DNA of 32,000 bases from Methanococcus maripaludis (GCF_002945325.1 NZ_CP026606.1:450001-482000), one strand, 5' to 3'. Shown: positions 2,641 to 21,412, counted from the first letter of the stretch. Numbers and translations: made by a program. The notes: generated from the sequence alone by a model not told the origin.

Positions 2641-3038
2641 CCGAAAAATTTTTTAAAATTTTCTAAGTCTTTGGAGAATTCTTTAATAGCTCAATGGCCC
2701 CTCATGATGTCTTGATAGCATGGTCCGCCAGAGTACTTGAAGGTCCATTTGACCAGTACTCTGACCATATTGTCGAGGCAATTTTAGCTATAATCTTGAG
2801 TTATAGGATTCTACCATCTACTTTGAAAATAAGAAGAAATGTTTTATAATCGACGAAAAAACGGCTTTTAAATTTAGAAATAATACATAAATTATAGTTG
2901 TTAAAGAAAATTGGCCTTTGTTTAACAATTCTAAGCGCTTAACCTGCGTTATTAAAATTTTTTAATAGTGGACCATTACTCAACTATCAAAATCTATCAA
3001 AATGTAAAGAATTGATAGATTCTGTTTTTTAAAAGTTC

Positions 3039-3122
3039 TAAAAACCTCTATTTTAATTAAATTTTAAATTAAAACGTTAAAAAGAGAGTTTTGAATAGTT
3101 AAAATTCGTCAACATTGATTTT
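3039..3122. repeat. 84-bp direct repeat, copy A; includes a relic of the last 7 codons plus stop of the 137-aa gene
   Basis: 3099-3122 is identical to 4024-4047 (ttaaaattcgtcaacattgatttt). The rest is near-identical to 3964-4023 by manual alignment. Confidence 0.8.
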
Positions 3123-3209
3123 TTCTATTTTTGAAATTTAAAAAACTCAATAGTTATTTATACAATCTTGTAAATAATAGTTATCAACTTGTATCAAATG
3201 GTGATAAAT

Positions 3210-3479
3210 ATGGCAGTAAGTGAATCAAAATTACAACACTCGCCAACCCTAAATACAATTCTTATGGTTGAAGAAACATTGAAAGATGCAGACAGTATCA
3301 TAACAATTCCAGAATTGAAGAAAAAACTTCCAAAAAAAGTGAATCACAACACTTTAAAAGTAATTTTAGAATATTTGGAAGAAAGTAACAAAATTGCAGT
3401 ATCTTTAAAAGGAATTACCTGGATATTCAATACAAATGTGAATTTAAAAAACGTAGTACATAATGGGCTTGAACTATGA
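3210..3479 (+). CDS. small protein, putative antitoxin or DNA-binding partner of the downstream RelE-like gene
   Basis: GGTGA at 3200-3204 lies 5 nt before ATG 3210 (the track start is TTG 3189). It overlaps the next ORF by ATGA, a typical toxin-antitoxin arrangement. Confidence 0.55.
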   Translation: MAVSESKLQHSPTLNTILMVEETLKDADSIITIPELKKKLPKKVNHNTLKVILEYLEESNKIAVSLKGITWIFNTNVNLKNVVHNGLEL

Positions 3480-3823
3480 AGGATGTAAGAGTAGTTCTTT
3501 CTCCAAATGCTGCTGAAATATATACCAAATTAAAAGAAAGCGATGAAAAACTTGACAAATCGATACTTAACTCATTTTTAGAAAAAGTTGAAATTTTAAA
3601 AACCAACGTTCATTATGGAGATCCTGTTTCTAAAAAGTTAATTCCAAAGGAATACGTTAAAACTTACGAAATTAAAAATTTATTTCGATTCGAATTACCT
3701 CAATTTTTCAGGGTTACGTATACAATTACAAATGGAACGACGGGAATTGAAATTATTGTTTTGGTATTGGATATTATGGACCACAAAACATACAACAAGA
3801 AATTCGGCTATAAAAATCGGTAA
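3476..3823 (+). CDS. RelE/ParE-superfamily-like toxin (putative)
   Basis: 115 aa. The C-terminal pattern NLFRFELPQFFRVTYTI...IEIIVLVLDIMDHKTY resembles the RelE/ParE core (W/F-R-x-R-x-G-x-Y-R-h-h-Y ... h-h-h-h-x-h-x-H-R). Confidence 0.5.
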   Translation: MKDVRVVLSPNAAEIYTKLKESDEKLDKSILNSFLEKVEILKTNVHYGDPVSKKLIPKEYVKTYEIKNLFRFELPQFFRVTYTITNGTTGIEIIVLVLDIMDHKTYNKKFGYKNR

Positions 3824-3963
3824 TTTTTGATTATAGTAAAATTTTGATGCATTACAATTAAATTATCTTTTTTAATTCTTTGAAAATTAAAGAATAATTA
3901 TCGACTATCCACATCTGTTGTAAAACAGGTCCCTTGACTTTTGAATTTTCAAAAAAAGGATTT

Positions 3964-4047
3964 TAAAAACTTTTATTTTACTTAAATTTTAAAATAAAAC
4001 TGTAAAAAGAGAGTTTTTGATAATTAAAATTCGTCAACATTGATTTT
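3964..4047. repeat. 84-bp direct repeat, copy B; the genuine 3' end of the 137-aa gene plus its downstream region
   Basis: Manual alignment with 3039-3122. Confidence 0.8.
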
Positions 4048-4437
4048 GTAGAATAAATCAGCATCTTTTACATAATATAATTCGTTTCCTTTTTTTATTT
4101 CTTCGATTACTTTATCTTCTGGGACAATGTATCCAACTAAGAACTGATCTATTGTTAAATTACCTTCTGACATGATTTCAGTGGTTTTTGTTGAAAGGTC
4201 TGGCAGTTTAATTTTTTGCAATTTGTGAACTGATAACCTGTCATCTTCAACCAGTTCGACCCATTCGATTTTTTTAACAACGTTTGAGAATGAATCTGGA
4301 TTAGCGTAGTTTTTATAGTCTTCAAATGCTTCAAAACCTTCTAAAGACATTTTATAAAGTGTCGATTTTAAAATATCGCTTAATTCTTCGTGACTTTTTA
4401 GATTTCTTAAAACTTTTTCTTCTATTTCTCCTGACAT
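4024..4437 (-). CDS. conserved hypothetical protein, 137 aa, copy 1 of 2
   Basis: ORF with GGTGA upstream of its start. It has a near-identical paralog at 20999-21412. Confidence 0.8.
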   Translation of the reverse strand: MSGEIEEKVLRNLKSHEELSDILKSTLYKMSLEGFEAFEDYKNYANPDSFSNVVKKIEWVELVEDDRLSVHKLQKIKLPDLSTKTTEIMSEGNLTIDQFLVGYIVPEDKVIEEIKKGNELYYVKDADLFYKINVDEF

Positions 4438-10902: not shown

Positions 10903-11880
10903 TCATAGCATTTTCTTAATGTCTTTAATCATTTTCTGCTGCCTTTCTTTAGAATGTGCATAAAATAACGTCGTTTCAATTGATTTGTGCCCCAAATATT
11001 CTTTTACAATTTCAATTGGAATTCCCTGATCTAAAAGATCTACTGCTCGCCCGTGTCTTAAACTGTGGACTACGATTCGTTTGTTTTTTGGGATTTTACC
11101 TTCTTGTTTTAATTCATCAATTGTACTTTTAAATACCTGACCGATCCAACCAACTTTTACGATTCTACCGCCTTTGTTAGTTTGAAAGATCGTATCTTCC
11201 GGCCCCTGTAGTACATTAAATCTGCAGTAGTGCTTTAAAGCTTCAAGCGTGTCGCCTGAGCACGTTACCATTCTTTCTTCACTTCCTTTAGTATCCCTAA
11301 GCTTGAAGAGTCCTTCGTTAAAGTCGCAGTCGCCATACGTGATGTTTAAAGATTCAGAGAGTCTTGCTCCAGTATCCCATAAAAACCGGATGTGTACTGC
11401 ATCCCTTAATTTTGTTCTACTGCTGCTTTTGATAATTTTTTGAAGCACTTGATTTATCAAATCAGCATTTATTGAATCATAGTGCTTTATTTCAAATTTT
11501 GAATATCTTTTTCTTTCCTTACTTTCTTCTTCAAACTGAGAGAAGTTTTTAAGCCGCATAAGTCGGTAAAACACCTTTAACAGTTTAAAATACTTGTCAA
11601 GAGTATTTCTTTGAAGTTTTCGCTCTTTTTCAAGATAATTAAAGAACTTGACAAAGTCGCCGTTATTTGTAATTTCAGGCGTTTTTTCGATTTCTAGGAA
11701 AACAAACGATAAAAATACCCTTAACCTCGTGATGTCATTTCTCAACGTTGTTTTTTTGATTCCATCAAATTCTCGCTCTTCCCTGAAACGGTCGAGCCAT
11801 TCCCTAATTTGTGGAGTTTCTTTTACCTCATCTCGTTTTGGTTTGATAGATATAAGTTTCTCGATGTCCATCTGATTCAC
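10903..11880 (-). CDS. tyrosine recombinase / integrase
   Basis: Catalytic signature GARLSES (R), HSLRHGRA (HxxR) and LGHKSIETTLFYAH (H...Y). The ORF is intact. Confidence 0.85.
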   Translation of the reverse strand: MNQMDIEKLISIKPKRDEVKETPQIREWLDRFREEREFDGIKKTTLRNDITRLRVFLSFVFLEIEKTPEITNNGDFVKFFNYLEKERKLQRNTLDKYFKLLKVFYRLMRLKNFSQFEEESKERKRYSKFEIKHYDSINADLINQVLQKIIKSSSRTKLRDAVHIRFLWDTGARLSESLNITYGDCDFNEGLFKLRDTKGSEERMVTCSGDTLEALKHYCRFNVLQGPEDTIFQTNKGGRIVKVGWIGQVFKSTIDELKQEGKIPKNKRIVVHSLRHGRAVDLLDQGIPIEIVKEYLGHKSIETTLFYAHSKERQQKMIKDIKKML

Positions 11881-14404: not shown

Positions 14405-14495
14405 ACATATAACATTTTTTGTTATTTGATTACACTTGTAATTATGAGTAATTATCCTATATATAGCTTATTACATTTTTTGTTATTTAATAATT
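14405..14495. promoter_or_regulatory. divergent promoter region with a duplicated 16-nt operator-like sequence
   Basis: ACATTTTTTGTTATTT is perfectly repeated at 14412-14427 and 14473-14488. Each copy contains the AACA-N5-TGTT dyad. Confidence 0.5.
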
Positions 14496-14567
14496 AATTT
14501 CGTTATGATTTTCAAATATATATGATAAGGTAAACATAATTGATACATGGAAAACTAGCGGGATAGT

Positions 14568-14963
14568 ATGATTGAGATTTTTAACCAAAAATTCGTAAAA
14601 GATATTCTTACTTTAGTATTCGAGAACTCAGAAGGAATGTTTTTTACAGATCTTCAGGATAAACTAACTGAAACGTATGGGAGCATTCATCAAAGTGCAG
14701 TAAGCCGTGCAATATCCACATTATTTCAAAATAGAATGATTGAAAAATTGGAAGTTAGAGTGGACCAAAAAAATATTCCTAAAAGTTTCTATAGAATAAC
14801 GGAAACAGGCAAATTTGCTTTTAAAATACTTGAAATGGATAAAGAACTTGATGAAGAAGTAAAAGGAGTTAAATTTCACAACGAAATCAACGGGGATGTT
14901 GGACAAGTTATCAACATTGATAAAGCCGACAGCTTAGAGATTAACTTTAAAAAAGGTAAATAA
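14568..14963 (+). CDS. winged-helix transcriptional regulator, 131 aa
   Basis: The pattern FTDLQDKLTETYGSIHQSAVSRAISTLFQNRMIEKLEV...YRITETGKFAFK fits a helix-turn-helix plus wing. It is a paralog of the 4609 and 21751 ORFs. Confidence 0.6.
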   Translation: MIEIFNQKFVKDILTLVFENSEGMFFTDLQDKLTETYGSIHQSAVSRAISTLFQNRMIEKLEVRVDQKNIPKSFYRITETGKFAFKILEMDKELDEEVKGVKFHNEINGDVGQVINIDKADSLEINFKKGK

Positions 14964-15037
14964 TTACTATTTTGATATTTTATCGGGATTGAATCGATAT
15001 TTTTAAATATTCTTTTTTAAATAATTAAGTTATTAAA
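14921..15037. repeat. cassette-boundary direct repeat R1 (about 117 bp); begins inside the last 14 codons of the 14568 regulator gene
   Basis: Manual alignment with 16473-16589 (full length) and 17732-17809 (first 78 bp). Confidence 0.8.
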
Positions 15038-15060
15038 TTTATTATTTTTGAGGTGGGTTA

Positions 15061-15192
15061 ATGGCAAGGAAAAATCCAACGACTACGAATGGTAAAGTAA
15101 ATCGGGCATTAACGGGGGACGGAAGGAAAAAACCTGTAAAACAGATTAAAAAGAACATTAAAGAAATGATTGACGCTTCAAAAAAGAAGTAA
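15061..15192 (+). CDS. micro-ORF, 43 aa, highly basic
   Basis: GAGGTGGG lies 5 nt before ATG 15061. Manual translation: MARKNPTTTNGKVNRALTGDGRKKPVKQIKKNIKEMIDASKKK. Confidence 0.45.
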   Translation: MARKNPTTTNGKVNRALTGDGRKKPVKQIKKNIKEMIDASKKK

Positions 15193-15252: not shown

Positions 15253-16431
15253 ATGGAAATGAAAAATCTTCAAGATTTACTTATGGAAAAGATTTATTTA
15301 GAATATATAAACGGCAAAAAAACATTATCCCAATCAGAATTTAAGTATCTAGGCGTAGACAATGATGATATTTATATCGCATTGAAAGATCTGTGTTATG
15401 AAAACAAAATCGATCTTAAAGCACAAAGAACTACAATGGGTGTTTATTATTTTACAGAATTGACTGCGAATGGAATAAAATCAGTTGAAAACCCAAAATT
15501 TACTAAAAAACAGGTTGAAAAAGCTAAAAAAATTATAAATGAAAATTCAGCACTGGTAATGAATTCTAAATACCAAACACATCAAAACAACATAAAAATA
15601 TTGTTGGATGAATTTGAAAACGACCCTGTTTTAAGACATATAATGCTTAAGTTAAAGATTATAGATTATGATTTTGATAGTTGGTATTCTGAAACAACAT
15701 CTACAATGTCCTCAATGGTGGCTTCTGCTAGATACGAATTACCCTCAAATAAAGATAAAAGATTATCTTTATTATATAAATTTTTAAAGGCTATTTCAGA
15801 AGGTAAACTTAAAGCATACAATTTTTCATTGATGGCATTGAGCGGAGATAAAAACCTTGATACATTAACAGATGTTTTTAACGAACAGATTTTTGTTCAT
15901 TTTTATAATGGAATTCTTTCAAAACTGGAAATTATTCTCGAAGAAATTGAAATTACAGGTGTGAACGTGGAGAATGTTACTATAAACTCAAATATTCAAA
16001 ATTCAATTTTTAAAAACAATGAATTTTCGTTAAATAATAAACTGGTATTTATATTATGTCCTTTTGAAGACGTCTTCAACGTTGTTTGTGCAGATCATAT
16101 TAAACCCCTCATGACATCATTAGACTTGGATTGTATGCGTGCTGACGATATATTTGACACCAAACCGATCATTGAAGATATTTGGAAGTGTATTAACGAA
16201 GCTCGCATTATAATTGCAGATTTAACACATAGGAATCCAAATGTTTTTTATGAATTGGGTCTTGCACATGCATTGGGAAAAGAAGTTATTACAATAACTC
16301 AAAATATTGCAGATATTCCCTTCGATGTTCGCCATATGCGAATTATTGAGTATTCTTACACTCCACGGGGAGTTGAAAAATTACAAAATGATTTAAAAAA
16401 GACTATCGAAACGATTTTAAACAGAACATAA
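15253..16431 (+). CDS. 392-aa protein: N-terminal wHTH-like region, helical middle, and a C-terminal nucleoside 2-deoxyribosyltransferase/TIR-like Rossmannoid domain
   Basis: The C-terminal pattern VFILCPFEDVF...MRADDIF...ARIIIADLTHRNPNVFYELGLAHALGKEVITI...PFDVRHMRII matches the NDT/DrHyd-like family signature as I remember it. GGTG RBS. Confidence 0.65.
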   Translation: MEMKNLQDLLMEKIYLEYINGKKTLSQSEFKYLGVDNDDIYIALKDLCYENKIDLKAQRTTMGVYYFTELTANGIKSVENPKFTKKQVEKAKKIINENSALVMNSKYQTHQNNIKILLDEFENDPVLRHIMLKLKIIDYDFDSWYSETTSTMSSMVASARYELPSNKDKRLSLLYKFLKAISEGKLKAYNFSLMALSGDKNLDTLTDVFNEQIFVHFYNGILSKLEIILEEIEITGVNVENVTINSNIQNSIFKNNEFSLNNKLVFILCPFEDVFNVVCADHIKPLMTSLDLDCMRADDIFDTKPIIEDIWKCINEARIIIADLTHRNPNVFYELGLAHALGKEVITITQNIADIPFDVRHMRIIEYSYTPRGVEKLQNDLKKTIETILNRT

Positions 16432-16472
16432 TACTTTTAAATTTTAAAGTAAATCGATCTTTTTAAATTTTT

Positions 16473-16589
16473 TAAAGCCGAGGGCTTATGGATTAACTTT
16501 AAAAAAAGTAATTAATTCTATTTTTGATATTTTATCGGGATTTAATCGGTATTTTTAAATATTCTTTTTTTAATAATTAAGTTATTAAC
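16473..16589. repeat. cassette-boundary direct repeat R2
   Basis: It aligns with R1 over its whole length. Its first 45 nt would translate to KAEGLWINFKKSN-stop, a relic of the regulator C-terminus KADSLEINFKKGK-stop. Confidence 0.8.
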
Positions 16590-16635
16590 TTTTATAACGA
16601 TTTATTTTGATATTGTAACTTATGGGGGCAACATA

Positions 16636-17712
16636 TTGTTTACGTTACATAATTCAGTAATAAATACTGCGATCATTGTTTTTGAAAAGATGAGAAAGAA
16701 AGACATCAATGCATATTTTTCTAAGAAATCCTACCAGCACGATTTAAGAATAGAAGGAACTGGGGGAAGTAACGCCTCCCTTTTTGAAAGTTGGATATCG
16801 CAATTTCCCCCCGAAATCCAATTAGAATGTTTAAATGAATTAATGCAAAAATATGGCCCTGATGACGATCAAGGTCTTGGTGAGCTTTTAGAAAGTGAAA
16901 CTATTCAATATTCTAAATATTTATCTAAAAATGAATCAGGTTTAAACAATAATAAAAATGAAAAATTAGATTTTGGAGGGGTTACTATGGCAACCAATAA
17001 AAAAAAGAAAATATTTATAAGTCATTCTTCAAAAGATAAAGAATATGCAAAGCTTTTAAGAGATGTTCTGGAAAATGCCGGTTTAACCCATGATCAAATA
17101 TTTTGCACATCCCTAACGGGACATCGAAATGAATTTGGAAAAAATTTCTTAGACAATATAAAAAACAAGCTAAATGATGATTACTTAATATTATTCCTTC
17201 TTTCTAGAAATTTCTATGAAAGTCCCATGTGTATGTGTGAATTAGGTGCAGCATGGGTTAAAACAAAAGAATCCGTTCCCGTATTAATCCCCCCTTTTGA
17301 TTACGACGACATGAATATGACAATAAAACATACTGAAGGTTTTAAAATAAATGAGAAGGATAGAATACACGAATTTAAGGATTATTTAGATTCTAACTTT
17401 AATAATAAACCAATTCCTGTTTCCATTTGGAATGAACGAACTGAAAAAACTTTTTCAGATATCATTAAATTAATTGAAAAAGATTCAAAAAATGCTAAAA
17501 AGTCCTCCAAAAAAACAACTGCAAAGAAAACAAGTGATAAAAAGTCTAAAAACTCAGAAAATAAAACTTCAAAATCAAAAACTGCTAAAAAACCTACTAA
17601 TGCTAGAAAAACCAGTACTACAAAAAAATCAGATGATCCTTTTAATATTAATATATCAACAGATAGTTCAATATCAGGTATTCTTGGCGGAAATTCTAAA
17701 AAATTATTCTAA
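16636..17712 (+). CDS. TIR-domain protein with a Lys/Ser/Thr-rich basic C-terminal tail
   Basis: The segment KIFISHSSKDKEYAKLL...LILFLLSRNFYESPMCMCELGAAW is a canonical prokaryotic TIR pattern including the catalytic Glu. The tail is KKSSKKTTAKKTSDKKSKNSENKTSKSKTAKKPTNARK. There is an alternative strong internal start at ATG 16987. Confidence 0.8.
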   Translation: MFTLHNSVINTAIIVFEKMRKKDINAYFSKKSYQHDLRIEGTGGSNASLFESWISQFPPEIQLECLNELMQKYGPDDDQGLGELLESETIQYSKYLSKNESGLNNNKNEKLDFGGVTMATNKKKKIFISHSSKDKEYAKLLRDVLENAGLTHDQIFCTSLTGHRNEFGKNFLDNIKNKLNDDYLILFLLSRNFYESPMCMCELGAAWVKTKESVPVLIPPFDYDDMNMTIKHTEGFKINEKDRIHEFKDYLDSNFNNKPIPVSIWNERTEKTFSDIIKLIEKDSKNAKKSSKKTTAKKTSDKKSKNSENKTSKSKTAKKPTNARKTSTTKKSDDPFNINISTDSSISGILGGNSKKLF

Positions 17713-17731
17713 TTCTTTCTTTTTTAAATTT

Positions 17732-17809
17732 TAAAGCCGATGGACTTGAAATTAACTTTAAAAAAGGAAAATAATTACTATTTTGATATTTTATCAGGAT
17801 TGAATCGAT
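17732..17809. repeat. cassette-boundary direct repeat R3 (shorter, 78 bp)
   Basis: It aligns with the first 78 bp of R1. It would translate to KADGLEINFKKGK-stop. Confidence 0.75.
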
Positions 17810-17949
17810 CTTGTTTTAAATTTTTAAAGTGCACTTTAAAACATAATTATATTATAAATTAAGCCTATATAATGAGGTAATTTTTAATTTTAACTCACTA
17901 AAATATTCATAATCAAAACGGTAATCAATAAATCAAAAGGCGATTTCAA

Positions 17950-20016
17950 TTGAATTTTTTCAAAATAACAACGTGTTTATTATTACTTTTTGCATTAATT
18001 TCAGTAAATTATTCTGCTGAATTTGTAGATGATGGACAGTATGTCTATTGTAAATTAACAAACGAAAATTTGGGTGAATTTGGTATATTGAATAGATCTA
18101 TCTCAGGCACAGATAATGTTTATCTTGTAACGGGATTTTCTGAAAGTGCTAATTTGCCAAATAATACTTATCTTGACTTATCATTAGATAAATACTTTCC
18201 AAATGTTGGAAATCAAGGTAAAATCGGTTCATGTACCTCATGGGCTTGTTCATACTATGCAAATTCATATTTACAGGCAAGAATTAACAACTGGGATTTA
18301 AAAGGAAATGACAGTTCTAAATGTTTGAATCCGTTGTGGACGTATAATAAAATGAACAATGGGGAAATATACCTTGGAGCTAACTCCGAAGATACATTAA
18401 AAATGCTTTCAAGAATTGGTGCTGTAACTTATGAAACAATGCCTGAAAATGAGAGCTATACTTTTTGGGGCGATGAAGATGACTGGCTTGAAGCACCCCA
18501 ATACAGAATAACAGGCTTTGATTTCACCCTAACGAGTAATACTGAAATTATAAAATCATGGTTGAACGAAGGTTCAATCGTAATTATTGCAATCCATTAC
18601 GATGATTTAAGAAATTGTTTTGAAAATACATCCATAATTTCAGATCACTGCCAATCTCATGAGGACGCAACTCACGCGGTCGTAATTGCAGGGTATAATG
18701 ACAGCATGTCAAAAGATAATGAAACAGGAGTTTTTAAAGTTGTGAATTCTGAAGGCCCATTATGGGGCCCTAATGGTGATGGATGTTACTATATGACGTA
18801 TGATGCAGTTTCAAATCTAAAAGATTGTTATTGTGCTAGGATATCTGATGCAGTGTACAATACTTCAGATTCTCACCCCGAACTTATTGGGTATGTACGG
18901 TTTGATCCCGAAAATAAAGGTACAAAAGATCAAAACATAATTTTTGGAATTGGAAATGAGTCAAATATTTCTGGATATGTAGATATTTTTGGAAGTCTTT
19001 ATTGTAATCAAAATGGCGGAAACGGCTCAATGCCTGATTTTATCGTAATTGATTTGACTGACTGGAAATCTGAATTTGAAAACTCATTAAACACCACTGG
19101 AAAAGGATATTACTTTGTTAATTTTTCAAATGGAACGGAAACTTCAATAATTTCTGAATTTGGAATAATTAAATACAGCTCTTATCCAGATATCGAAGAA
19201 ATAAATACATTAAATTCGTATGCTTGCAATAAATCAGTAGTATTTAAGTTTTACAGTAAAACAGCCCCCGAAATTATTAATTCAAGCGTAAATGTTTTAG
19301 AAAACGAAGTTATTGTTTCAATAAGTGCAGAAGACGTTGAAAACGACCTATGGGGCGTAAACGTATACTTTGACGGTTCAAATGAATATTATTCATTAAA
19401 CGGTACAAATGAAACGTTTAACGGCTCATTTGATAAATCCATGTTTTCATACGGCGAACACTACGCAATATTTGAAGCGTTTGATGGTTCAGGAAACGTG
19501 AATAATAGTGAAATGGTTGCTTTTGAAATTTCAGCCCCAGCTACTTCTTCAAGAAGTACTGGAAACCATTATAGTTCCGATCTTTCTGATGGAATTAGTT
19601 CTGGAACCATTAAAAGAGCAGTTTCAAATTCAAATATTATATATGGAAGCGATGTAGATGAAGGATATGCTTTGAATTTGAGAGAGAATGTTAAAAATGG
19701 AAACGATTACGAACTTTCAGGAGATACAATAATTGTTGGTGGACCAGAAGCAAACGGATTTGCTGAAAAGTACGATTCAGAGTTTGAAATTTCAATTACA
19801 AACGACTATCCTGGGGAAAATAAAGGGCTAATTCAAGTGAAAAATATTGAAGTACGCGACGGAAACATAATCAAAACTTATCAGGTAATATATATTGCAG
19901 GTTCTGACAGGTTTGGAACACAGGCTGCTTTAGAATACTTTAAAACTTTAGATGAGCTTCCCGATATGCCCCTTACTGTTGAATGGACTGAAAATGGACC
20001 TGTGGTTGTTGAATAA
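17950..20016 (+). CDS. secreted papain-like (C1 family) cysteine peptidase with C-terminal surface-attachment domains
   Basis: Signal peptide MNFFKITTCLLLLFALISVNYSA. Catalytic motifs NQGKIGSCTSWA (Q, C), HAVVIAGYND (H) and VVNSEGPLWGPNGDGCYYM (N, W). The C-terminus IIVGGPEANGFAEKY...IYIAGSDRFGTQAALEYF resembles the Methanococcales S-layer C-terminal region. It has many N-x-S/T sequons. Confidence 0.8.
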   Translation: MNFFKITTCLLLLFALISVNYSAEFVDDGQYVYCKLTNENLGEFGILNRSISGTDNVYLVTGFSESANLPNNTYLDLSLDKYFPNVGNQGKIGSCTSWACSYYANSYLQARINNWDLKGNDSSKCLNPLWTYNKMNNGEIYLGANSEDTLKMLSRIGAVTYETMPENESYTFWGDEDDWLEAPQYRITGFDFTLTSNTEIIKSWLNEGSIVIIAIHYDDLRNCFENTSIISDHCQSHEDATHAVVIAGYNDSMSKDNETGVFKVVNSEGPLWGPNGDGCYYMTYDAVSNLKDCYCARISDAVYNTSDSHPELIGYVRFDPENKGTKDQNIIFGIGNESNISGYVDIFGSLYCNQNGGNGSMPDFIVIDLTDWKSEFENSLNTTGKGYYFVNFSNGTETSIISEFGIIKYSSYPDIEEINTLNSYACNKSVVFKFYSKTAPEIINSSVNVLENEVIVSISAEDVENDLWGVNVYFDGSNEYYSLNGTNETFNGSFDKSMFSYGEHYAIFEAFDGSGNVNNSEMVAFEISAPATSSRSTGNHYSSDLSDGISSGTIKRAVSNSNIIYGSDVDEGYALNLRENVKNGNDYELSGDTIIVGGPEANGFAEKYDSEFEISITNDYPGENKGLIQVKNIEVRDGNIIKTYQVIYIAGSDRFGTQAALEYFKTLDELPDMPLTVEWTENGPVVVE

Positions 20017-20998: not shown

Positions 20999-21412
20999 TT
21001 AAAATTCGTCGACATTGATTTTGTAGAATAAATCAGCATCTTTTACATAATATAATTCGTTTCCGGATTTGATTTCTTCGATTACCTTATCTTCTGGGAC
21101 AATATATCCAACTAAGAACTGATCTATTGTTAAATTGCCTTCTGACATGATTTCTGTGGTTTTTGTTGAAAGGTCGGGTAATTTGATTTTCTGCAATTTG
21201 TGAACTGACAACCGGTCATCTTCAACCAGTTCGACCCATTCAATTTTTTTAACAACGTTTGAGAATGAATCTGGATTTGCGTAATTTTTGTAGTCTTCGA
21301 ATGCTTCAAAACCTTCTAAAGACATTTTATAAAGTGTTGATTTTAAAATATCGCTCAATTCTTCGTGGCTTTTTAGATTTCTTAAAACTTTTTCTTCTAT
21401 TTCTGCTGACAT
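20999..21412 (-). CDS. conserved hypothetical protein, 137 aa, copy 2 of 2
   Basis: It differs from 4024-4437 at 25 of 414 nt by manual alignment, giving only 2 amino-acid changes (G3A, K116S). Confidence 0.8.
   Translation of the reverse strand: MSAEIEEKVLRNLKSHEELSDILKSTLYKMSLEGFEAFEDYKNYANPDSFSNVVKKIEWVELVEDDRLSVHKLQKIKLPDLSTKTTEIMSEGNLTIDQFLVGYIVPEDKVIEEIKSGNELYYVKDADLFYKINVDEF

Follow-up and report, generated by a model that had tools for sequence, protein, structure and literature searches.

An NDT/TIR-like fusion protein and an SpbK-type TIR protein, probably independent defence modules in a pT26-2-family element of Methanococcus maripaludis

SpbK-type TIR immunity has so far been characterised only in Bacillus, where SpbK, a TIR NADase of Bacillus subtilis, is carried as single-gene cargo by the integrative mobile element ICEBs1. 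The TIR domains of SpbK are clustered by a portal protein, which turns on its NADase activity, and its products include cyclic ADP-ribose (cADPR) besides ADP-ribose (ADPR) (PMC12847820). In other systems the toxic arm of abortive infection (Abi) is a domain of the nucleoside 2-deoxyribosyltransferase (NDT) superfamily. Fusions of an Abi N-terminal domain to an NDT domain were predicted to be toxins in 2013 by Anantharaman et al. (PMC3710099), members of the DrHyd group have been put on a par with TIR as NADase effectors (PMC9503650), and the NDT-like effector of retron Ec86 is reported to deplete NAD+ (PMC13276650). Here we analyse two adjoining open reading frames (ORFs) in a stretch of 32,000 nucleotides from Methanococcus maripaludis (GCF_002945325.1, NZ_CP026606.1:450001-482000), which as a whole is called the window. 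The first, ORF1, ends in an NDT/TIR-like domain, and the second, ORF2, carries a TIR domain closest to that of SpbK. An original prediction, made from the sequence of the window, had proposed the two as a candidate nucleotide- or NAD-based defence pair, leaving room for two unconnected systems. Our analysis points to the latter: ORF1 and ORF2 are probably two independent single-gene defence modules of the abortive-infection type, which adjoin each other in the cargo hotspot of an element of the pT26-2 family. The parts of both proteins are as follows, with coordinates counted from the first letter of the window and models from AlphaFold2 (AF2), whose confidence is given as the predicted local distance difference test (pLDDT).

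15253..16431, + strand: ORF1, 392 aa, ATG start; putative single-chain sensor-effector
15268..15459, + strand: ORF1 putative winged-helix, residues 6-69; three helices and a β-hairpin in the AF2 model, pLDDT 35-68
15496..15951, + strand: ORF1 helical domain of the PDC-M14B type, residues ~82-233; PADLOC match (3.4e-12) and HMMER relatives
16015..16428, + strand: ORF1 NDT/TIR-like Rossmannoid effector domain, residues 255-392; AF2 pLDDT ~96, Foldseek, PADLOC and invariant columns
16252-16254, + strand: codon of the predicted catalytic Glu of ORF1, E334, which aligns with the Glu of the DNPH1/Rcl YELG motif
16636..17712, + strand: ORF2, 358 aa, TTG start; SpbK-type TIR protein
16636..16947, + strand: ORF2 four-helix N-terminal domain, residues 1-104; AF2 helices 2-30, 46-54, 59-73 and 81-104, pLDDT 50-80
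16999..17475, + strand: ORF2 TIR domain with an extra αF helix, residues 122-280; AF2 pLDDT ~80-98, Pfam, PADLOC and Foldseek
17239-17241, + strand: codon of the ORF2 catalytic Glu, E202, invariant in the homologues
17476..17709, + strand: ORF2 Lys/Ser/Thr-rich tail, residues 281-358; helix to ~312, then disordered; not conserved

Translation of these coordinates confirmed both ORFs and the motifs that had been quoted for them, namely FILCPF (residues 266-271), ADLTHRNPNVFYELGLAHALGK (322-343) and PFDVRH (356-361) in ORF1, and FISHSS (127-132) and CMCELGAAW (199-207) in ORF2. The two genes lie on the + strand with a gap of 204 bp, and each is a 100% match to an NCBI protein of M. maripaludis, annotated as 'hypothetical protein' for ORF1 (P0001) and as 'TIR domain-containing protein' for ORF2 (P0121). 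A stop-free run of at least 358 codons was obtained in 0 of 200 shuffles of the window. ORF2 contains an internal in-frame ATG, M118, with a strong Shine-Dalgarno sequence (GGAGGGG) 7 nt upstream (16973-16989). The 117 codons that precede M118 would stay open by chance with a probability of only ~3e-4, so the long form with the TTG start is probably real; a TIR-only isoform starting at M118, devoid of the N-terminal domain, is possible in addition.

ORF2 is the canonical TIR protein with a catalytic Glu that had been predicted. It matches the Pfam family TIR_2 (PF13676) above threshold, with 45.3 bits against a cut-off of 28 (1.5e-11; residues 126-220), and by profile, sequence and structure its TIR domain is closest to SpbK. 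The PADLOC spbK model matches at 2.5e-39, with coverage of model positions 115-305 only (the TIR part), and the SpbK chain 9phb was found in the PDB by sequence at 1.7e-14, in an alignment restricted to residues 122-249. The AF2 model of ORF2, for which an alignment of 48 homologues served as input, retrieved the SpbK filament 9phb as the top Foldseek match (E-value 1.4e-8, TM-score 0.86, root-mean-square deviation 2.3 Å, 155 columns), the likeness including the αF helix. The SPARTA TIRs rank second at ~2e-4, four orders of magnitude behind SpbK, and SPARTA was reported as the nearest structural neighbour of SpbK too (PMC12847820).

The conservation pattern points in the same direction. E202, F127, I128, S129 and H130 are invariant in the 48 homologues, and SHSS (129-132), G204 and W207 are also conserved in the TIR domain. 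The SpbK residues S121/S122, T148, the catalytic E192, G194 and W197, which have been implicated in NAD+ binding or filament contacts (PMC12847820), correspond to S131/S132, T158, E202, G204 and W207 of ORF2, the catalytic Glu and the Gly/Trp interface residues of αC being kept. At the interstrand (CC) interface G204 and W207 are retained and N191 of SpbK is replaced by a Cys, C201, a residue shared by at least 90% of the family of ORF2.

Both ORF2 and SpbK are single-gene cargo of an integrative mobile element and have an N-terminal helical domain of ~100-120 aa, but ORF2 belongs to an archaeal host and differs from SpbK at both ends. PADLOC and PDB sequence alignments gave no homology between its N-terminal domain, presumed by analogy to bind the trigger, and the domain of SpbK that binds YonE (portal clip), only the general all-helical architecture of ~100 aa being alike, so the trigger of ORF2 must differ from that of SpbK. 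This domain is not conserved among the homologues of ORF2, nor does it show similarity to the N-terminus of the M. maripaludis paralogue P0122, despite TIR domains that are 58% identical. At the other end, a helix at 262-312 follows the TIR core in the AF2 model and leads into the extra ~80-residue tail, whose 79 residues include 21 K, 15 S and 10 T; most homologues are 265-285 aa in size. No recurrent neighbour of the family was found among 194 neighbours at 80 loci. ORF2 thus reads as a protein that combines an SpbK-type TIR domain with another head for trigger recognition; it most likely works like SpbK and is no orthologue of it. Since clustering of the TIR domains by the portal protein is what turns on the NADase of SpbK, we interpret ORF2 by analogy as a putative one-gene NAD+-depleting sensor-effector.

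The C-terminal domain of ORF1 had been assigned to the NDT/TIR-like Rossmannoid proteins, a label that is accurate because the folds of both groups score alike, PF05014 is matched by relatives, E334 aligns with the DNPH1 motif and a PADLOC effector model covers the domain, although ORF1 itself stays below the Pfam threshold. In Foldseek, NDT, DNPH1/Rcl, the CMP N-glycosidase BcmB and TIR proteins (MAL, SARM1, SPARTA) were retrieved with similar scores (E-value 2e-4 to 5e-3; target-normalised TM-score 0.5-0.75; identity 13-20%), the matches of NDT fold being 2a0k (2.1e-4), 8qc0, 7o62, the DNPH1 entries and BcmB, all with probability 1.00 and with target-normalised TM-scores of 0.52-0.75. PF05014 was found in 18 of 60 homologues of the domain (E-value up to 1e-3, best 1.6e-9), and no TIR family of Pfam in any of the 60. 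The PADLOC model PDLC00733, a CBASS effector labelled 'TIR', matches ORF1 at 1.6e-9 and all 60 homologues (best 1.9e-20), through the C-terminal ~100 positions of the model. E334 is invariant in the 60 homologues, as are F266, P270, D298, W311, N330, Y333, G336, K343 and D354, and it stands in register with the Glu of the Rcl/DNPH1 'GYELG' motif, in alignments with weak E-values (0.3-2). A PDB profile search with the family gave nothing significant.

The domain shares with NDT, DNPH1 (Rcl) and BcmB (clan Nribosyltransf; the 'DrHyd' of Burroughs, Iyer and Aravind) the Rossmannoid fold, with Foldseek E-values of 2e-4 to 3e-3 and TM-scores of 0.6-0.75 relative to the target, and the 'YELG' Glu, and differs from them in its low identity to solved structures, in its first strand, and in being fused to a conflict-system N-terminus in a mobile/defence context rather than one of nucleotide salvage. 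In NDT and DNPH1 specificity for 2'-deoxy substrates is linked to a Tyr in β1 that is hydrogen-bonded to the Glu, a position at which TIR NADases carry Phe or Ala (PMC11204291). The β1 of ORF1 is 'LVFILCPF', with F266 invariant and Tyr absent across the family, which hints at NAD+ or ribo-substrates if F266 is equivalent to the NDT Tyr, as motif and strand position suggest. A sequence homology between this domain and the TIR domain of ORF2 was considered and rejected, with hhalign probabilities of at most 2.6% for full and trimmed profiles, so their kinship is at fold level only; MAFFT places 'YELGLAH..PFD' of ORF1 over 'CELGAAW..PFD' of ORF2. The DUF4062/Swarozyc family of TIR-like NADases was likewise discarded as the home of ORF1, since neither ORF1 nor the 60 homologues match DUF4062 in Pfam. 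We conclude that the C-terminal domain of ORF1 represents a distinct family between NDT and TIR, with no solved structure.

Only these C-terminal ~140 residues of ORF1 are widely conserved. The NDT-like module has more than 2,000 matching protein clusters and at least 584 hits in species-representative genomes; 98 plasmids and 28 viral contigs also carry it. Archaeal and bacterial versions share 50-60% identity, many of the relatives being bacterial proteins of ~300 aa with 55-60% identity over the domain, and the module is preceded by swappable N-termini that include AbiTii, HSP70, REC (receiver) and PP2C.

Two variations on the module were observed along the way. A protein of 403 aa from a JGI metagenome (P0060) contains the NDT-like module twice, with an additional copy at the N-terminus (KANPNVFYELGIAHSLGKNV…DVPFDIRH) besides the one in its usual C-terminal place. 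In metagenome-assembled genomes (MAGs) of Acidobacteriaceae, short standalone NDT-like genes of 172-183 aa are found (L055:9450-10378, L062:9483-10459, and L024); in L055 and L062 the gene overlaps by 4 nt a ~140-aa upstream gene, with a large gene (671-1136 aa) ahead. All three loci have homologous versions of the ~140-aa gene and of the large gene, which may represent a multigene system with the NDT-like module as a separate effector.

The N-terminal half of ORF1 had been described as a winged helix-turn-helix (wHTH)-like and helical region. The helical part has independent support: residues 84-255 match PDC-M14B (PDLC04449) at 3.4e-12, over model positions 4-167 of 267, i.e. the N-terminal part only, and an exhaustive HMMER search returned 134 cluster representatives, 105 of which were aligned and 95 of these match PDC-M14B. 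A word-indexed homologue search with residues 1-255 had retrieved ORF1 itself only. The winged helix is predicted at low AF2 confidence, and the region is common only to P0241 and, in part, to P0247 and P0313. P0241 is the closest N-terminal relative, with the wHTH and helical regions at 40% identity over 244 aa, and its C-terminus consists of two transmembrane helices instead of an NDT-like domain. Elsewhere the helical domain is followed by TIR_2, PycTIR/CAP12 TIR, SpbK-like TIR, ThsB TIR or Schlafen (SLFN)-AlbA_2 domains, and some of its relatives are single-gene candidates of the PDC-S35 type. Because it is fused directly to TIR domains in these proteins, the helical domain, presumed to be a sensing or oligomerisation module, acts upstream of TIR-class effectors and not as a reader of their products. 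The swapping of both heads and effectors reads as the signature of single-chain sensor-effector Abi proteins. ORF1 is a new combination of domains (wHTH, PDC-M14B-type helical and NDT-like effector) within a class already predicted by comparative genomics and PADLOC.

Compared with other described or catalogued systems, ORF1 and ORF2 share single components and not the complete set. Pfam scanning of 27 ORFs of the window revealed no SIR2, Macro or SLOG domain, in agreement with the original prediction, and no member of the CD-NTase family. The module of ORF1 is that of the terminal effector in CBASS-type operons, represented by PDLC00733, but there is no CD-NTase or other CBASS gene among the ORFs scanned, and the wHTH and PDC-M14B-type N-terminus is unlike the N-terminal part of that model. 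The helical domain matches component B of PADLOC PDC-M14 and related candidates (PDC-S35/S50), from which ORF1 differs in its effector half, and PDC-M14A had no match in the four flanking products (the wHTH protein, a 43-aa ORF, ORF2 and a 688-aa ORF). A literature search found no papers on PDC-M14, and the PDC-M14/S35/S50 candidates are apparently unpublished. In the case of Thoeris (ThsB TIR and ThsA), the likeness consists of the TIR domain of ORF2 with its catalytic Glu and of weak ThsB matches (1.7e-7, against 2.5e-39 for spbK); ORF2 is far closer to SpbK, and no effector of the ThsA type (SIR2-SLOG, Macro or TM) is present in the window. With no cyclase, no A component and no ThsA, the two genes are not CBASS, PDC-M14 or Thoeris. 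Retron Ec86/Eco1 and the Abi-NTD/NDT fusions also use an NDT-superfamily domain as the toxic arm, but here there is no reverse transcriptase or ncRNA, and the absence of retron effector structures from the top 50 Foldseek hits of ORF1 indicates that its module belongs to a family distinct from the retron effector.

Co-occurrence in other genomes had been named beforehand as one of the tests of a functional pair. We fetched 108 NDT-like loci (80 from genomes and 28 viral) from bacteria, archaea and viruses, together with 83 loci of SpbK-type TIR (80 from metagenomes and 3 viral), and ran hidden Markov models built from both domain alignments on the ORFs in the locus flanks. No separate SpbK-like TIR ORF was detected in the flanks of any of the 108 NDT-like loci, and no NDT-like ORF in those of the 83 TIR loci. 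Among the 290 proteins encoded within ±2 genes of NDT-like genes, no cluster spans more than 4 loci. Pfam analysis of 148 immediate neighbours, from 98 NDT-like loci, identified methylases, Mrr, GNAT, AAA and integrases, with no TIR family reaching 2 members. In the annotated plasmid contexts the NDT-like genes are standalone 'hypothetical proteins', located near recombinases or in phage-moron positions. Two-way co-occurrence, neighbour clustering and Pfam analysis of the neighbours thus led us to reject, as the main interpretation, the proposed pair of a signal producer and a novel sensor/effector, given that the two genes do not co-occur outside M. maripaludis, have no recurrent neighbour and lie in separate cassettes (see below). 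The evidence favours the other option offered at the outset, two independent single-gene systems.

The surroundings of the two genes support this view. The presence of a tyrosine integrase and a T26-6p homologue in the window identifies an integrated plasmid of the pT26-2 family, already on record for M. maripaludis (PMC6972569), and together with the repeats described below they bear out the mobile-element and defence-island setting that had been suggested. Scans of the window for tRNA genes and Rfam families returned nothing. The relevant features are:

10903..11880, - strand: tyrosine integrase of the pT26-2-family element (Phage_integrase, 1.5e-27)
14568..14963, + strand: wHTH regulator gene of the element (PadR/MarR/Csa3-like; weak matches to PadR/HTH_34/HxlR and Csa3)
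14908-15040, + strand: repeat R1; 3' end of the wHTH gene (ending in KADSLEINFKKGK and the stop), then a palindrome TATCG-N9-CGATA, then a TATA-like TTTTTAAATA
15061..15192, + strand: small ORF of 43 aa, very basic (MARKNPTTTNGKVNRALTGDGRKKPVKQIKKNIKEMIDASKKK), in the cassette of ORF1; Shine-Dalgarno-like GAGGTG 6 nt upstream
16460-16592, + strand: repeat R2, 85% identical to R1, between ORF1 and ORF2; degenerate remnant of the wHTH 3' end, palindrome and TATA-like box
17719-17851, + strand: repeat R3, 69% identical to R1; closes the ORF2 cassette, ahead of the 688-aa gene
17950-20016: ORF of 688 aa (also at L199:14611-16677); weak S_layer_C and Peptidase_C1 matches, N-terminal hydrophobic segment
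28018-30048: T26-6p homologue, which marks the pT26-2-family element

Five M. maripaludis variants of this element, the window and four others, have an NDT-like gene in the slot 3' of the wHTH gene. It is the first gene of the slot in L197 and L199, the second in the window and L001, and the fourth in L200, and in L001, L197, L199 and L200 an equivalent of the wHTH gene lies either directly upstream of it or a few genes further upstream. The N-terminus of the NDT-like protein is an orphan head in the window, AbiTii in three variants, and yet another in L199. The cargo mixes differ between the five strains and include PDC-M50, Hachiman, GmrSD, PDC-M24A and TPR genes; a ThsB_TIR gene and a 136-aa gene at L197:9406-10318 correspond to components A and B of PADLOC PDC-M50, and L200:10053-13255 encodes a Hachiman system (HamA and helicase). 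As regards TIR genes, the five variants compare as follows:

Window: SpbK-like TIR, adjoining the NDT-like gene on the same strand
L001: SpbK-like TIR, with an opposite-strand 518-aa gene between the NDT-like gene and the TIR gene
L199: SpbK-like TIR, with an opposite-strand 823-aa TPR gene between the NDT-like gene and the TIR gene
L197: ThsB-type TIR, adjoining the NDT-like gene, convergent
L200: no TIR; Hachiman (HamA and helicase) nearby instead

A repeat of ~130 bp is present in three copies in the window, and its core motif had 0 chance matches in shuffles. The sequence duplicated in these cassette repeats is that of the last ~14 codons of the wHTH gene, a remnant of which opens every copy, ahead of the palindrome and the TATA-like box. 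The copies bracket the 43-aa ORF with ORF1, then ORF2, and then the next gene, of 688 aa. A T-rich stretch is found 3' of the ORF1 stop, and R2 probably supplies ORF2 with a promoter of its own. Judging from this arrangement, ORF1 and ORF2 occupy different cassettes, each probably with its own copy of one promoter/operator, and since each has its promoter-like repeat copy they are probably separate transcription units. A scan for sigma-70 promoters was set aside, as it is unsuited to an archaeon and its match count was near the expectation from shuffles. In L001 the repeat likewise follows the wHTH gene and a second remnant closes an AbiTii-NDT cassette, and the distal copy of L199 matches R3 letter for letter and lies ahead of the same 688-aa gene. 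Because the same repeat brackets cargo in these two variants, we regard the site 3' of the wHTH gene as a hotspot of cassette exchange.

Taking these data together, we propose that both proteins follow a common design, in which a fast-evolving N-terminal domain for trigger recognition and oligomerisation would be joined to a conserved C-terminal N-glycosidase of the TIR/NDT class. The four-helix domain of ORF2 would bind a multimeric protein from an incoming virus or plasmid, upon which the TIR domains of ORF2 would cluster head-to-tail, creating composite active sites around E202 that would hydrolyse NAD+. In ORF1, the wHTH and PDC-M14B-type region would sense a cue of the invader, be it protein or nucleic acid, and self-associate, and this would turn on the NDT-like domain (E334), leading to the N-glycosidic cleavage of NAD+ or another essential nucleotide and to cell arrest. 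The two genes would be transcribed separately, with the wHTH protein encoded upstream as their common regulator, and each could then confer an antiviral phenotype by itself.

Several observations weigh against this proposal. The N-terminal domain of ORF2 has no homology to the portal-binding domain of SpbK, which leaves its trigger as pure inference; the repeat is assigned its functions of promoter and operator from sequence only; and for the C-terminal domain of ORF1 the PF05014 match is below threshold (20 bits vs 28.8, residues 304-354 only), the nearest folds include dNMP and CMP N-glycosidases besides NADases, and no solved or characterised member of the family was found. Moreover, four of the five element variants have a TIR-family gene no more than two genes away from the NDT-like gene, and a protein of 333 aa from an Algicola sp. 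MAG (L049:984-1985, JABSOG010000604.1) fuses TIR_2 (residues 7-128, 1.5e-30) to an NDT-like module (residues 214-328) and retains the catalytic Glu motif of each. These last two findings are compatible with some functional link between the enzymes. They would fit a single system in which the TIR domain of ORF2 makes a NAD-derived signal sensed by the N-terminus of ORF1, or in which the NDT-like enzyme processes the TIR product, as would the position of the two genes on the same strand, 204 bp apart and behind the same promoter-like repeat, and the ability of SpbK to yield cADPR besides ADPR (PMC12847820). However, the five variants are related elements, so that the linkage in four of them is no independent evidence; an opposite-strand gene splits the NDT-like and TIR genes in two (L001 and L199), the TIR of L197 is of the ThsB type and has its own partner in PDC-M50, and L200 has no TIR. 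Only 1 of 108 loci encodes the fusion, which can be discarded as a common architecture, with 0 among 275 matching plasmid records out of 72,556 plasmids. Adding to this that neither set of loci shows the partner, that every TIR family has fewer than 2 members among the 148 immediate neighbours, that the helical domain of ORF1 is elsewhere fused to TIR domains, hence placed upstream of effectors, and that the two genes occupy separate repeat-bounded cassettes, we consider a single system to be improbable. It is just as doubtful that TIR- and NDT-class enzymes of Methanococcus act in series on NAD-derived nucleotides, the TIR product being sensed or converted by the NDT-like protein.

Two further alternatives concern what the genes do. 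ORF1 could be a defence effector with a target other than NAD+, as an N-glycosidase of dNMP, NMP or NTP that depletes or damages these nucleotides, or by excising bases from nucleic acid; true NDT, DNPH1 and BcmB enzymes have (deoxy)nucleotides as their substrates. NDT, DNPH1 and CMP N-glycosidase are its top Foldseek matches, PF05014 is the only Pfam signal of the family, with no TIR family matched by the 60 homologues, its profile has no significant match to that of the SpbK-type TIR family, and an action on DNA was what Aravind's group first proposed (PMC3710099). On the other hand, TIR structures score nearly as high as NDT structures, F266 is invariant and the β1 Tyr missing (PMC11204291), in so far as the positions are equivalent as the motif suggests, the retron Ec86 effector depletes NAD+ (PMC13276650), and PADLOC groups the module with TIR effectors of CBASS; a non-NAD+ target is in our view unlikely, though it deserves some weight. 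The position of the genes within a mobile element beside its regulator, the small ORF in the cassette of ORF1 and the predicted toxicity of the effectors to the cell would also suit toxin-type modules of addiction or stabilisation that keep the plasmid, with, for example, the 43-aa peptide or the wHTH protein restraining ORF1. This we judge very unlikely, given that conservation of the 43-aa ORF does not extend to other NDT-like genes, that the NDT-like family is mostly standalone, with no small conserved partner, that among characterised proteins the one nearest to ORF2 acts against phage and is carried by a mobile element (PMC8880864, PMC12847820), and that the other cargo of the slot (Hachiman, GmrSD and PDC candidates) is of the defence type.

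With two independent modules as the preferred interpretation, the locus of ORF1 and ORF2 is an ordinary but tidy archaeal defence-cargo hotspot. ORF2 extends the SpbK type to a methanogenic archaeon, and the cargo of the pT26-2 plasmid family has hardly been studied for defence. The widespread NDT-like effector is a good target for biochemistry, being either another NADase or a new nucleotide-depleting activity, and the substrate or chemistry of the module could be new to immunity. TIR and NDT-class enzymes in series, if true, would amount to a new kind of two-enzyme defence pathway. The repeat-bounded slot 3' of the wHTH regulator offers a tractable M. maripaludis system for studying how defence genes are exchanged by archaeal mobile elements and regulated together.

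The 43-aa ORF is called as a gene in three assemblies; it was considered as a conserved partner of the NDT-like gene and rejected, as it is unrelated to the hydrophobic 90-aa ORF of L001, absent in L199, and has no PADLOC match. The 688-aa ORF does not look like a defence gene.

A few other features of the elements were noted. In L197 a gene with a CD_NTase_C domain lies beyond the integrase, at the edge of the locus (L197:1-303). The divergent intergenic region between the wHTH gene and a leftward block of small genes contains a 40-nt direct repeat (14408-14447 and 14469-14508, 75% identity), each copy with a short internal inverted repeat (TAACA…TGTTA), which looks like the operator pair of the element's switch region. 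A 300-nt direct duplication with 93% identity (4024-4323 and 20999-21298, 17 kb apart) corresponds to two copies of a 137-aa ORF on the minus strand (4024-4437 and 20999-21412), also present in L001 (17240-17653), and may be a trace of nested or tandem elements or of duplication within one element. Finally, an 87-nt direct repeat (3036-3122 and 3961-4047, 89% identity, 925 nt apart) flanks two small ORFs on the + strand (3189-3823).

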